Shown piece after piece: positions 25,466 to 43,371 of a DNA stretch of 64,000 nt. Under the pieces are notes generated by a model. That model saw nothing but the letters and a program-made list of their open reading frames with translations. It had not been told where the DNA came from and made no database searches. Position 1 is the first letter of the stretch; every line of letters starts with the position of its first letter. The stretch lies in the IMG/VR virus record IMGVR_UViG_3300034685_000230, positions 25,472 to 89,471 of that record; one strand, written 5' to 3'. The translations under genes were made by a program, and so were the position numbers. This stretch comes from a virus.

Positions 25466-25933
25466 TTAACCTACAGGTACACTATTCTTCTTAGCTTGCT
25501 CCTCTACATATTTCTTACCCTTTCGAATAGCTACTACTCCCCACCTCGCGTCCCTGTAGTCAATCCACCAGGACGCTCTGGTTTCCTTTAGTAGCTCTGT
25601 AAGACCCAGCCTTGCTAAAAATTCCTCCTGCGTAGACTTTTCTTCAGGGTTGAGTTTGTAAACTTCCAACTGCTTCTCTATTGCTTTTATCGCTTCCATC
25701 CTGATCTTAAGCGCCCAGTCGACTTGCTTTTTGCTCCCCGTTAGTTCGGGGAGTTTCATCTCCCTACTCTTTTCCTTAGCTTCCTCTAGTTCTTTCTCAC
25801 GCTTCTCGGCCTTACACCCGTCGCACAACCAGTAGTAGTGCTCCACCTTGTAGTTCCTATCCTTCATCTTACCGTACAGCTGTACTTCAAACTCTTTCCT
25901 ACACTCGCGGCACTCAACCTTTGTCCACGCCAT
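25466..25933 (-). CDS. hypothetical phage protein
   Basis: Zn-ribbon N-terminus; LPELTGSKKQVDWA motif. Confidence 0.7.
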   Translation of the reverse strand: MAWTKVECRECRKEFEVQLYGKMKDRNYKVEHYYWLCDGCKAEKREKELEEAKEKSREMKLPELTGSKKQVDWALKIRMEAIKAIEKQLEVYKLNPEEKSTQEEFLARLGLTELLKETRASWWIDYRDARWGVVAIRKGKKYVEEQAKKNSVPVG

Positions 25934-40043: not shown

Positions 40044-41411
40044 ATGGCTAACATAAGTGGCTGGAACCCAGATACTTTTTCATTCTCTCCTGAGTTTCAG
40101 AAGCAGATCATTGCGGCAATGATTCAGGAGCCGAAGATATTTGAGAGGTTAGGTATCTTAACCGATTATAGAAGTTTTGACTTACAAGAATACTCCGAGA
40201 TATTTAAGGGTATCCAAGACTTCTACGAAGAGTACCGCGGCATGCCGACGAAGGAAGCGCTGAAGGACTTACTGTCGACTAGGTACCACTCCGAAACACT
40301 CGACGAAACACTAAACGAGATATTCAACCACAAGAGAATCGCAACGTCGACTCTAGAGTACATTGAAGACAACATAAGGAACTTTATCAGCTGCCAAGCC
40401 CTTAAGAGGGCTGTGTGTGAGTCGATCGACGACTTGGGTGACCCTAAGAAGCACCCGAACGTTAAGGACAGGATAGAAAAGGCTCTGACGATAGGAGCTT
40501 CCCTAGACGACTTCGGTATCGACGCTTACAATGACGAGGAGATACTAAACCGGTGGCAGCGGAGGAAGGACAAGCGGGAGATTCCAAGGATTTCTACCGG
40601 TTGGGAGAAGTTTGACCAGATTTTCGGTGGGTTCGGCATCGGGGAGGTGTTTACCTTTACGGGACCCGCCCACAGCGGGAAGTCAATGTACCTCATCAAC
40701 GTCGGGGCTAACGTCTTGCTACAGAAGAAGAACGTGCTACACATCTCACTGGAGATGTCTCAAGAGATTACGGCCCAGCGGTATGACATGAGGCTACTAG
40801 GGTTGACTAAGGATGAGCTAAACTCTAAGAAAGCCGTAGAGAGGCTTAAGGAGATACTAAGTAACCACTTAGGAAGACTAATCATCAAGCGGTACCCGTC
40901 GGACACGGTAACTGCCGTCGACGTCGCGACGTTTATAAAGAGGCTCGAGATGGTCAAGGACTTTGTTCCGGACATAGTTATAATCGACTACGCTGACATC
41001 ATGCGGTCTACACACCACTACAGTGACAGGAGGTTTGAGTTAGACGCTATCTACAACCAAGTTAGAAATCTAGGCATTGAGTTTAAGGTACCCATAGTTA
41101 CGGCGACACAGCTAAACAGGGACTCTTTAGAAAGATTAGAAGCAGGAAAAATATTGACCGAGGCTAATATCGCCGAATCATATTCCATCGCGAGAGTTAT
41201 CGACTGTGGAATTACTATAAATTCCACCCCCGCTGACATCCGGCAACATGTTTCCACTATTTATGTGTTTAAAAATCGTGACGGTGAGAGTGGCGAAACT
41301 TTTCGCATGTACGTTGATTTTAGCAGAGCTCTTGTACGTGAATGGGGACCGTCTCCTGACATCACAAATCAAATGAAAAAAGGAAAACAAAAAAATCATC
41401 AAAAAATATAA
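40044..41411 (+). CDS. dnaB: replicative DnaB-like helicase (gp41-like)
   Basis: GPAHSGKS, SLEM, IIDYAD, TATQLNR, KNRDG. Confidence 0.92.
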   Translation: MANISGWNPDTFSFSPEFQKQIIAAMIQEPKIFERLGILTDYRSFDLQEYSEIFKGIQDFYEEYRGMPTKEALKDLLSTRYHSETLDETLNEIFNHKRIATSTLEYIEDNIRNFISCQALKRAVCESIDDLGDPKKHPNVKDRIEKALTIGASLDDFGIDAYNDEEILNRWQRRKDKREIPRISTGWEKFDQIFGGFGIGEVFTFTGPAHSGKSMYLINVGANVLLQKKNVLHISLEMSQEITAQRYDMRLLGLTKDELNSKKAVERLKEILSNHLGRLIIKRYPSDTVTAVDVATFIKRLEMVKDFVPDIVIIDYADIMRSTHHYSDRRFELDAIYNQVRNLGIEFKVPIVTATQLNRDSLERLEAGKILTEANIAESYSIARVIDCGITINSTPADIRQHVSTIYVFKNRDGESGETFRMYVDFSRALVREWGPSPDITNQMKKGKQKNHQKI

Positions 41412-41452
41412 CTTAATTATATATATACTATATAATACTATATATAATTAAG
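41412..41452. promoter_or_regulatory. 14-bp inverted repeat overlapping the RBS of the MerR-like gene
   Basis: cttaattatatata-N13-tatatataattaag; TATAAT in the loop; right arm runs into AGGAG. Confidence 0.6.
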
Positions 41453-41465
41453 GAGAATAATTATA

Positions 41466-41648
41466 ATGGAAATATTAAAACCAAAAGAAGTTTCAGTTAT
41501 GTTAAATGTAGCTGTAAGTACTTTACAGTATTGGGACAGGATTGGTAAGTTAAAAGCTTTTCGTACGGTTAATAACAGAAGATATTATACAAAAGAACAA
41601 ATTGACGAATTTAAAAGATTTTATTATGGTGTTGATCGCGATGAATAA
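41466..41648 (+). CDS. stand-alone MerR-type HTH (IS607 TnpA N-terminus-like)
   Basis: KPKEVSVMLNVAVSTLQYWDRIGKLKAFRTVNNRRYYT. Confidence 0.8.
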   Translation: MEILKPKEVSVMLNVAVSTLQYWDRIGKLKAFRTVNNRRYYTKEQIDEFKRFYYGVDRDE

Positions 41649-42834
41649 AGAATCATACCGCTGTGATTTTTGTGGTAAGTCTTTTGCTATAAAAGATAAT
41701 TTATATCGTCATTTGTCAAAAAATAAAGACTGCTATGATTTCTACTACCACGATAAAGTGGAAAATATAGATTATGTGACATGTAGAATATGTGGTAAAA
41801 GACTAAGTCGCATATTTGAACAGCACCTTAAAACGCACGGTATGACAACTGAAGAGTATAGGTTGCTTTTTCCTGACGCTGTGCTAACGGCGCAGGAAAC
41901 TAAAGATAAGCGAAAGCAAACTAATTTAGAAAGATACGGCGTTGAAAACCCTTTTGTGGTGAAAGAGATTAAAGAAAAAGTGAAACAAACATTTTTAGAA
42001 AGATACAATGTTGAACACCCAATGCAAATAAAAGAAGTAAGAGATAAATTTAAACAGACATGCTTAGAAAGGTACAGCGTTGAAAACCCAGCGCGATCTG
42101 AAGAAATAAAAAATAGAATTAAACAGACATGTTTAGAAAGATACGGCGTTGACTCTCATTTTAAATCACAAGAAGTGAGGGATAAAATTAAGCAAACATT
42201 TCTAGACAGGTACGGCGTTAAGAATCCACTGCAAATAAAAGAAGTACGAAATAAAATTAGACAAACAAATTTAGAAAAATACGGGGTAGAGTATCCACTA
42301 CTTTCAGAAGAAATTCAAGATAAAATAAAGCAAACCAATTTAGAAAGATACGGAGTAAAATATATATCACAAGTAAAAGAAATACAAAATAAAATTAGAA
42401 ACACAATGCTGCAAAAATATGGTGTATACTATAATTCCATGCCATGTTTTTCATTAAACTCACAGGAATTATTCACTTCTATAGAATTAATATTATCAGA
42501 CATGTATCCAGATTTAGAATGCTTCTATGCTACTAATAAAGAAATAGAGTTGGGTGGAAAATTAGTTACAAATGAATATCAAGTATTAGTTGAATCTGTT
42601 TCAGATAATAAAAAAGTTAGATTTTTAGACTTTTATATACCAGCACTAAAGAAGTGGATTGAATTCGATGAGAGTTATCATGATAATATTGATCAATTAA
42701 ATGATGATAAAATAAGAGAACAAGAAATAAAAGCAGTGATTCCTGGTATTGAATTGTTACGAATTAAAGAAGAAGATTATTTAAACAACAAGGGTCATAC
42801 GGTTGAAAAGTGTATTGACTTTATTTTAAGTTAA
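41641..42834 (+). CDS. free-standing homing endonuclease (Zn fingers, about 8 QTxLERYGV repeats, Vsr/EDxHD-like nuclease)
   Basis: AT-rich; about 25-aa repeats; FLDFYI...IEFDESYHD...DKIRE...LLRIKE. Confidence 0.8.
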   Translation: MNKESYRCDFCGKSFAIKDNLYRHLSKNKDCYDFYYHDKVENIDYVTCRICGKRLSRIFEQHLKTHGMTTEEYRLLFPDAVLTAQETKDKRKQTNLERYGVENPFVVKEIKEKVKQTFLERYNVEHPMQIKEVRDKFKQTCLERYSVENPARSEEIKNRIKQTCLERYGVDSHFKSQEVRDKIKQTFLDRYGVKNPLQIKEVRNKIRQTNLEKYGVEYPLLSEEIQDKIKQTNLERYGVKYISQVKEIQNKIRNTMLQKYGVYYNSMPCFSLNSQELFTSIELILSDMYPDLECFYATNKEIELGGKLVTNEYQVLVESVSDNKKVRFLDFYIPALKKWIEFDESYHDNIDQLNDDKIREQEIKAVIPGIELLRIKEEDYLNNKGHTVEKCIDFILS

Positions 42835-42835
42835 A

Positions 42836-42919
42836 ATGTATGTTGACTTTAGCCGTGCTTTAGTTGGAGAGTGGTCAGGTATTGGGTCAAACGATATTAA
42901 AAAGATTGTTAAGAAATAG
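42836..42919 (+). pseudogene. second, stranded copy of the helicase C-terminus
   Basis: Encodes MYVDFSRALVGEWSGIGSNDIKKIVKK*, versus MYVDFSRALVREWGP... at 41307. Confidence 0.9.
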
Positions 42920-42939
42920 TTTATAACTGAGAATTCTCA

Positions 42940-42969
42940 GTTTACAAGCATGCTTAATTGTGGTATAAT
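42940..42969 (+). promoter_or_regulatory. T4-early-like promoter
   Basis: GTTTAC-18-TATAAT with TG. Confidence 0.65.
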
Positions 42970-43011
42970 AGTAGTGTTAATAGGTAAGTATATTAAGAGG
43001 GAGGTTAACAC

Positions 43012-43371
43012 GTGGCTAAGAAGAGTGGTATTGACGAGATCTTAAAGGCTAGCGAGGCTAAGAAGAAAAAGGCAAGTGCCGGTAAAGTTAAGGTAGTGGT
43101 AGAAAAGTGGCGGTTAAAAGGGGAAAAGAGTGTTGACAAAACGTTTACCGAGGACCCGCTGTTCTTTGAAACTGACACTGTAGTGTTTAGACTAAAACAG
43201 GGTGGCGGATACAAGGACATCGTGAGGAAGTATCCCGATGTCATGAAGTTTAACAAGGCTAAGGTTGGGTCTAAAACCAAAGTAGCTACAGGCGAGTGGA
43301 CAAGGATAGTCGACGTGGTAACCAGCGAGAGAGACTTAGTCTTTGTTATCGAACCGTTAGAAACAAACTAG
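43012..43371 (+). CDS. hypothetical basic protein
   Basis: 119-aa ORF with GGAGG RBS. Confidence 0.65.
   Translation: MAKKSGIDEILKASEAKKKKASAGKVKVVVEKWRLKGEKSVDKTFTEDPLFFETDTVVFRLKQGGGYKDIVRKYPDVMKFNKAKVGSKTKVATGEWTRIVDVVTSERDLVFVIEPLETN

Follow-up and report, generated by a model that had tools for sequence, protein, structure and literature searches.

The DNA considered here is a stretch of 64,000 nucleotides (nt), hereafter the window, taken from positions 25,472 to 89,471 of the 89.5-kb IMG/VR virus record IMGVR_UViG_3300034685_000230; window positions are used throughout. It holds a gene for a DnaB-like replicative helicase (40044-41411) whose last codons are foreign to the body of the gene. 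They are followed by two cassette genes, coding for a small MerR-type helix-turn-helix (HTH) protein and for a nuclease, and then by a second, stranded copy of the helicase end. This arrangement is probably the work of a gene-end-replacing (“mORF-like”) homing-endonuclease element which, judging from its structure and family membership, would spread by cutting, repair, and copying. The mobile unit spans approximately 41304-42832 and comprises the foreign last 35 helicase codons, a control region, the MerR-type HTH gene, and the nuclease gene. As the insertion lies between helicase codons 420 and 421, the element's own tail completes the helicase, and the resident tail (42833-42919) lies downstream, where it is either not translated or of no use. 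An earlier reading of the window alone (the original prediction) had proposed that a mobile nuclease unit entered the helicase gene without any intron or intein, supplying a C-terminus of its own and stranding the resident end, and the comparisons described below bear this out.

Layout of the Locus

The helicase open reading frame (ORF) encodes 455 amino acids, as compared to 432-470 in 28 homologues. It matches Pfam DnaB_C (3.6e-23) over residues 183-419, and the insertion point lies directly after this match. The upstream tail is in frame with the helicase body and completes a full-length protein in which the conserved ...MYVDFSRALVREW motif is kept. The C-terminus reads ...FRMYVDFSRALVREWGPSPDITNQMKKGKQKNHQKI up to the stop codon or, in a longer rendering of the terminal residues, ...MYVDFSRALVREWGPSPDITNQMKKGKQKNHQKI. 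The gene is followed by an AT-rich spacer of 54 nt (41412-41465), the MerR/HTH_17 ORF, the nuclease ORF, and the second helicase end. The latter is an ORF of 27 codons (42836-42919) that starts one base past the nuclease stop and reads MYVDFSRALVGEWSGIGSNDIKKIVKK up to its own stop codon; in a tblastn search inside the window, it matches the helicase end with an E-value of 7.7e-6. The GC content drops from approximately 0.45 to 0.23-0.33 over 41300-42900.

For comparison, 30 informative metagenomic loci, cited by number (L001 and so on), were obtained from helicase- and nuclease-based searches, and three further contigs are cited as X5, X6, and X7. In all 30 loci the helicase precedes a gene of 119 codons. 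The presence of two helicase ends around AT-rich nuclease DNA, as originally described, is confirmed by the ORFs, the tblastn match, the GC content, and the metagenome contig L083. Since L083 is independent and has the same layout, and since contigs from other runs cover the junctions, the duplication is not an assembly artefact. The parts of the locus are the following:

40044-41120, plus strand: helicase body of the resident backbone, residues 1 to about 359 (Pfam DnaB_C 3.6e-23; nt identity to L002/L026)
41121-41303, plus strand: foreign helicase segment, the co-converted tract left of the cassette (identity shifts from L002/L026 to L003/L008 and then to L001)
41304-41411, plus strand: replacement tail, codons 421-455 and stop, with which the mobile unit begins and which serves as the working C-terminus of the helicase (tail identities; L009/L010 divergence)
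41412-41465, plus strand: cassette control region with a 14-bp inverted repeat (repeat present in all 8 cassette loci)
41466-41648, plus strand: MerR-type HTH gene, 60 amino acids, HTH only (Pfam, PHROGs, and substitution rates)
41641-42834, plus strand: homing endonuclease gene, 397 amino acids (Pfam DUF7487, PHROGs, AlphaFold2, VIA-align, and substitution rates)
42833-42919, plus strand: resident helicase end left stranded (codon 421, which overlaps the stop of the nuclease gene, then codons 422-448 and stop), a non-functional remnant (L002/L026 and X5 matches)
42920-43011, plus strand: native intergenic spacer holding a promoter-like site for the next gene (identity to L026 95% from 42959 on)
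43012-43371, plus strand: next resident gene, 119 amino acids, of unknown function, the right flank in all relatives (directly 3′ of the helicase in cassette-free L001, L004-L007, and L010)

The Insertion Point

Three independent sequence comparisons place the insertion between helicase codons 420 and 421. Between the cassette-bearing locus L009 and the cassette-free locus L010 there are only 2 differences in the first 1259 helicase bases and 1 in the 700 bases upstream; the two diverge continuously from nt 1260 on, which is the third base of codon 420 and lies two bases ahead of the replacement tail. The remnant begins at the nuclease stop in both the window and L083 (AGTTAA followed by AATGTATGT), even though the two remnants differ. 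In L083, it equals the native end of cassette-free L004 exactly over 116 nt (204 of 205 aligned nt with the spacer included), whereas the functional tail of L083 agrees with L004 at only 42 of 63 nt. Finally, contigs X6 and X7, which other studies obtained from a biogas fermenter and an anaerobic digester, link window position 41284 to 42831 and skip 1546 nt. Their join holds 17 different letters in between and reads in frame as ...NRDGEAGEIFK-MYVD; so read, it is a cassette-free allele with an end of the window-remnant type. The mobile unit thus runs from codon 421 through the nuclease gene, and both of its junctions fall at one point of the naive gene.

The original prediction also held that cassette-free relatives should end like the downstream copy. 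This is correct for L004, which ends as the L083 remnant does, and for the remnant-like X6 and X7, and it fails for L001, which is cassette-free yet ends in the upstream tail type. Formally, L001 contradicts the proposal; it is not counted as a refutation since its structure is what cassette loss would be expected to leave.

Relatives with and without the Cassette

In cassette-free loci (L001, L004-L007, L010, and others less closely related), the helicase and the 119-codon gene are 16-190 nt apart. The cassettes form two lineages, one with a MerR protein 83-100% identical to that of the window (window, L083, L003, L009, and L085) and one in which this identity is about 70% (L002, L026, and L082). 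The complete window layout, including the second helicase end right after the nuclease stop, is found in L083. The remnant of L082 is shortened and contains stop codons. L003 and L026 keep the MerR gene, only 30-41 nuclease codons are left, and the remnant is gone; in L026 there is no equivalent of window 41767-42958. Read as stages, these sequences show the full cycle within one clade: naive (L004/L005), intact (L083), decayed (L082/L003/L026), and lost (L001).

The helicase end of L001 has three parts, namely a 5′ tail half that is foreign, a 3′ half common to both copies of the clade, and the native spacer. As the two tail copies of an L083-like locus share about 60 nt, this is the exact product expected from recombination between them, and we read L001 as a secondary loss of the cassette with the foreign tail as its footprint. 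Contigs of the L001 and L004 types are abundant in runs which also hold cassette-bearing forms, and a tail of the L009 type occurs in the source sample of the window. Donors and recipients therefore coexist.

The Mosaic Helicase 3′ End

Up to about 41120, the window helicase, compared in bins of 60 nt, is 87-100% (mostly 95-97%) identical to L002 and 84-100% identical to L026 where that contig covers it, the values for L001, L003, and L004 being 70-85%. After this point and up to the helicase stop, identity to L002/L026 falls to 54-70%, and within 41121-41303 alone to 54-67%. The stretch 41124-41183 is 98% identical to L003/L008 and the stretch 41184-41411 is 91-100% identical to L001; within the latter, the replacement tail (41304-41411) is 96-100% identical to the tails of L001, L003, and L083. 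From 42959 downstream the window is again 95% identical to L026. These switches of identity indicate that approximately 290 nt left of the cassette came with it from another lineage. The length of the left foreign tract varies: it is about 290 nt in the window and does not exceed 5 nt in L009, with L083, L082, and L003 in between at about 30 nt, and it is never negative. The cassette also accounts for the recombination hot spot that this phage group has at the helicase 3′ end.

Two further observations concern the same region. Inside the mosaic zone, 41184-41250 is a hypervariable helicase stretch (NSTPADIRQHVS in the window), with indels and several unrelated versions among otherwise near-identical phages. 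In L085, positions 12-143 join L002-type sequence just before codon 421 to an L009-type tail, a recombinant within 40 nt of the insertion point.

The Displaced End and Codon 421

Over their first 13 codons, the two tail copies of the window differ by six synonymous changes and one nonsynonymous change (CGT/GGA, Arg to Gly), 29 of the 39 nt being identical. The six synonymous codon differences had been listed correctly in the original prediction, which took the tail to be “recoded” and cleavage-resistant. This interpretation is not supported, as the differences do not exceed the background between two lineages: 6 of the 12 conserved codons differ synonymously in the duplicate, as compared to 60% of 333 between the window backbone and the lineage of the upstream tail. 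On this codon comparison, the synonymous differences show a foreign origin of the tail and neither selected recoding nor selection for resistance to the nuclease.

The window remnant is identical to the L002/L026 tails at 38 of 41 nt. Contig X5, from a landfill metagenome, is 97% identical to the window over 42835-42936 and has AGA (Arg) where the window has GGA (Gly). Most homologues have Arg or Lys at this site, and the Gly of the window fits the decay of a stranded copy. The ATG of the remnant is the native Met422 codon and does not point to a new gene. When IMG/VR was scanned for exact matches to the junction of nuclease stop and remnant and to the unique middle of the remnant, none was found.

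Codon 421 (window 41304-41306) was compared in 24 loci. It is CGN in all 9 cassette-type tails, the formerly cassette-bearing L001 included, and AGA, AGG, or AAA in 14 of the 15 cassette-free alleles; no other position adjoining the insertion point separates the two types. One cassette lineage also carries TGG-GGACCG, and the naive alleles have TGG followed by TCN, ACN, or AGY. The base patterns of naive and cassette-bearing alleles gave no clean signature of immunity, only codon 421 and the segment after TGG standing out. Both patterns may have been inherited with the element and are too confounded by descent to be taken as an immunity determinant.

The Nuclease and Its HTH Partner

The nuclease (397 amino acids, 41641-42834, stop codon at 42832-42834) consists of two zinc fingers (C2H2 and ROS/MucR-like), eight DUF7487 helical repeats of 23 amino acids, and a C-terminal Vsr-like domain. 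The Pfam DUF7487 match has an E-value of 5.7e-45 and a score of 154.4 bits, the curated cut-off being 27, and the C-terminus has weak Pfam matches to PvuRts1I-like and MTES_1575 nuclease domains. The protein is contained in PHROGs 3339 and 12131, both annotated “homing endonuclease”. An AlphaFold2 model of the last 136 residues (predicted local distance difference test score 86) was compared with known structures by VIA-align, with Z scores of 10.3 for 3hrl (a DUF559-type endonuclease), 9.4 for Vsr (1cw0), and 9.7 for the catalytic domain of I-Bth0305I (3r3p; root-mean-square deviation (rmsd) 2.5 Å over 92 residues). Foldseek gave probabilities of 0.97-0.98 for 3r3p and PvuRts1I, but with weak E-values of 0.02-0.06. 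The modelled nuclease domain has a Vsr/I-Bth0305I-like fold. Across 13-23 homologues, the segment LDFYIP...WIEFDESYHD is conserved and its residues D330 and E341 never vary; it is a candidate for the acidic/His catalytic motif of Vsr-like (EDxHD) enzymes.

In the full-length AlphaFold2 model, the eight 23-residue helical repeats lie between the fingers and the nuclease domain. A sequence search against the PDB recovered only C2H2 zinc fingers, the nuclease domain being found by fold comparison. Full-length Foldseek returned weak matches to apicomplexan mitoribosomal helical-repeat/RAP proteins (E 0.02, rmsd above 24 Å), which are unusable as evidence. The RAP domain of FASTKD4 aligns with the nuclease domain at a Z score of 9.0.

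At E <= 0.001, more than 7000 proteins match the family. The number of DUF7487 repeats varies at one and the same insertion site: it is 8 in the window, about 12 in L083 (595-2061), and at least 17 in L085 (411-1955). The combination of a MerR-type protein and a repeat-array nuclease, described at first as unfamiliar, proves less so in view of Pfam DUF7487, the PHROGs annotation, and the Vsr/I-Bth0305I-like fold. A mobile-nuclease role, already present in PHROGs, is thereby supported for a very large family which is of unknown function in Pfam; no paper mentioning DUF7487 was found in a limited literature search, an absence that weighs little.

A nuclease 57% identical to that of the window occurs in another phage locus, L084 (125-1363), with other N-terminal fingers, without a MerR gene, and without a duplicated flank. 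Its neighbour at L084 2126-2749 is presumably the start of a ribonucleotide-reductase-like gene, an assignment made by reading the ORF; an ORF of 213 amino acids on the opposite strand (1373-2014, minus) sits between the two. Flank duplication was absent at six more distant DUF7487 loci (L084, L086, L087, L090, L093, and L094) and at three loci with short flanks, and the exchange of gene tails is therefore not general to the DUF7487 family. Elsewhere in the window, at 2761-2910, tblastn detects a stretch of 50 amino acids that is 36% identical to the second zinc-finger module of the nuclease; it may belong to another mobile nuclease sharing this module.

The 60-amino acid protein encoded upstream of the nuclease matches Pfam MerR_1 (2e-11, positions 3-50 of 69) and HTH_17 (5.7e-9), and its PHROGs matches are the N-terminal HTH of transposases and excisionases. 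It consists of the HTH only, without the coiled-coil dimerisation and effector domain of a MerR-family regulator, and is better described as a MerR/excisionase-type HTH protein. Its gene is found in every cassette copy, and a scan with the protein yielded no additional loci. Both cassette genes are under purifying selection: the ratio of nonsynonymous to synonymous substitution rates (dN/dS) across copies is 0.08-0.17 for the HTH gene and 0.05-0.21 for the nuclease domain. In all copies, the start codon of the nuclease gene (ATG at 41641 in the window) overlaps the stop of the MerR gene. A programmed frameshift fusing the two products was considered and rejected, the overlap of two ORFs being conserved throughout.

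In the control region, a 14-bp inverted repeat (41414-41427 and 41441-41454, CTTAATTATATATA and TATATATAATTAAG) flanks TATAAT, and its right arm extends into the ribosome-binding site (AAGGAG) of the MerR gene. All 8 cassette loci have this repeat (window, L083, L003, L009, L085, L082, L002, and L026), and in the second cassette lineage a paired change of T/A to C/G preserves its symmetry (CTTAACTA and TAGTTAAG). It could serve as an operator for the HTH protein or as a hairpin hiding the ribosome-binding site.

Surrounding Genes

In the record, the helicase is part of a phage replication module with a sigma-like factor, a 213-amino acid protein, the 119- and 129-amino acid proteins, and a dCMP deaminase. 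The best helicases of isolated phages are only about 33% identical (SP-10 and its relatives), SPO1 being at about 28%, and a megablast search of the region against GenBank phages found no match. The strongest promoter-like site of the region (42941-42969; TTTACA, 17 nt, TATAAT, with TG upstream) lies in the native spacer after the remnant, and the next gene probably retains its own promoter despite the insertion.

Proposed Mechanism and Alternative Explanations

We infer cleavage, its target site, the escape of cassette alleles from cutting, and the part played by the MerR-type protein from sequence. During co-infection, the nuclease would cut cassette-free helicase alleles at or near the conserved ...(R/K)MYVDFS... 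coding site. The break would be repaired from the cassette-bearing genome, with the helicase body as the left homology arm and the remnant with the downstream spacer as the right arm, and repair would copy the whole unit and a variable length of left flank (from at most 5 nt in L009 through about 30 nt in L083 to about 290 nt in the window). Later, the nuclease and the remnant may decay or be deleted, as in L003, L026, and L082. Alternatively, the cassette may be lost via recombination between the tail copies, as proposed for L001.

Several points weigh against this account. The cutting is deduced from sequence, in which a target site is not readable. The functional tail keeps the MYVDFS coding motif, and the way in which the element avoids cutting itself is left unexplained. 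The full 27 codons of the window remnant were not recovered in any complete cassette-free contig, and a remnant is present in only three cassette loci (window, L083, and L082), the others being cut by the contig end or deleted. The tail type of L001 could be native to some lineage. Likewise, the functional tails of the second cassette lineage (L002, L026, and L082) begin like the window remnant, which is ambiguous between a native end and the tail of an earlier cassette.

An alternative explanation would be an ordinary free-standing homing endonuclease between genes. The duplication would then be a chance scar left when the element was once inserted illegitimately, and it would be the downstream copy, not the upstream tail, that belongs to the element, without relevance to its spread. 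The left homology break relative to L004/L005 can also be placed 9 nt past the helicase stop, the remnant-less derivatives L003 and L026 exist, and distant DUF7487 nuclease loci lack a flank duplication, all of which this explanation would accommodate. However, it is the downstream copy of L083 that is the native end of the clade (116 of 116 nt) and the upstream copy that is foreign (42 of 63 nt), and the upstream tail of the window is foreign to its backbone. Moreover, L009 and L010 break at codon 420/421 and not past the stop, and the copies without a remnant have lost the nuclease as well, so that we regard an intergenic origin as unlikely. We give slightly less credit to a patchwork scar, in which homology-facilitated illegitimate recombination between related phages joined a foreign helicase end, together with neighbouring genes, to the backbone of the window and the nuclease was a passenger. 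The helicase 3′ end is indeed a dense mosaic with patches from at least three lineages, but the same junction recurs base-exactly on three backbones, always with the same nuclease family between the copies. Presence, absence, and decay also match the classic homing-endonuclease cycle, and the two cassette genes are under purifying selection.

The resemblance of the 60-amino acid protein to the N-terminal HTH of IS607-type transposases and excisionases (phrog_6620, 1e-7) points to yet another origin. The unit could be what remains of an element of the IS607-like or integrase type, or a defence nuclease under MerR control, and would then have entered the 3′ end of the gene by site-specific recombination, like islands which bring a replacement gene end. 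Nevertheless, ORF and Pfam searches found no recombinase domain in the unit, and the flanks have no short repeats resembling attachment sites. Co-conversion tracts of variable length typify break repair and not site-specific recombination. This origin is highly improbable.

The gene-end-replacing homing element is thus the preferred reading, and it may be extended. The DUF7487 array could act as a modular DNA-reading solenoid that sets specificity, with the element's own tail (CGN at codon 421, TGG-GGACCG) as a selected immunity allele. This extension is speculative and we would not expect it to hold. If it did, the element would be a self-contained “tail-swap” gene drive for essential phage genes, and the more than 7000 natural relatives would offer a readable repeat code.

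Comparison with Known Systems

Homing endonucleases are known to enter essential phage genes by means of introns, inteins, and the splitting of genes, and replacement of the gene end is a further route. The evidence from nature is unusually complete in this case, with near-isogenic genomes that have or lack the cassette, an insertion point that is exactly placed, and examples of all stages from the invasion of the gene to the loss of the element. For annotation, the locus is a warning that a short “orphan” ORF downstream of a nuclease gene can be the displaced end of another gene.

The free-standing endonucleases of T4-type phages, such as SegF, SegG, and MobE, which mediate intronless homing, and the MobA-gene 60 cassette are located either between genes or within a gene that is thereby divided into two functional parts. 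We know of no T4-type free-standing case described with a substitute gene end and a dead duplicate. The window element shares with this group a free-standing nuclease beside an essential replication gene, co-conversion of flanks, presence or absence among close relatives, and mosaic flanks. It does not lie between intact and unaltered genes, since the gene end is replaced at codon 420/421.

A second comparison is with the Vsr-like (EDxHD) homing endonucleases. I-Bth0305I sits in the recA group I intron of Bacillus phage 0305phi8-36 (PDB 3R3P), and Vsr-like free-standing endonucleases of “fractured genes” have been described (PMC2677866). The window element resembles these systems in its catalytic fold, its phage setting, the choice of DNA-metabolism genes as targets, and an inverted repeat or hairpin that precedes the start of the endonuclease. 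They preserve the host gene by a self-splicing intron or a split intein, whereas the window element replaces the gene end, and the N-terminal DNA-binding part of its nuclease, with zinc fingers and a 23-amino acid repeat array, differs from theirs.

A close counterpart is found outside phages. In a limited literature search no phage description of the layout was found, an absence that is weak evidence. In fungal mitochondria, mORFs form gene hybrids with C-terminal duplication in atp6 of Allomyces macrogynus, in atp6, atp9, cox2, and nad3 of Glomus sp., in atp9 of Rhizopus, and in cox2 of Mortierella (PMC3630166), and partial C-terminal duplications of atp6 and cob have been reported around endonuclease ORFs (PMC6279837). 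The order is the same as in the window: gene body, foreign C-terminus, endonuclease ORF, and native C-terminus, without intron or intein. An endonuclease ORF lies between an inserted and a native C-terminus in the window and in L083, and in decayed form in L082. For the fungal elements, the native copy was identified by its near identity to element-free relatives and the inserted copy by its divergence (PMC3630166). In the phage loci, too, it is the downstream copy that agrees with relatives free of the element, the upstream copy being divergent or foreign, as seen for L083 against L004 and for the window against X5 and L002/L026. The parallel with fungal mitochondrial 3′-end replacement, drawn when only the window had been read, is therefore apt in both layout and identity test (PMC3630166). 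The differences lie in the phage host, in the replicative helicase as target, and in a Vsr-like nuclease with DUF7487 repeats instead of a LAGLIDADG or GIY-YIG enzyme. Furthermore, the fungal mORFs are fused in phase to the host gene, whereas the phage nuclease is encoded separately, in an operon of two genes that has its own control region and includes the MerR-type gene. With these differences, the window element is a phage counterpart of the mORF gene hybrids of fungal mitochondria.

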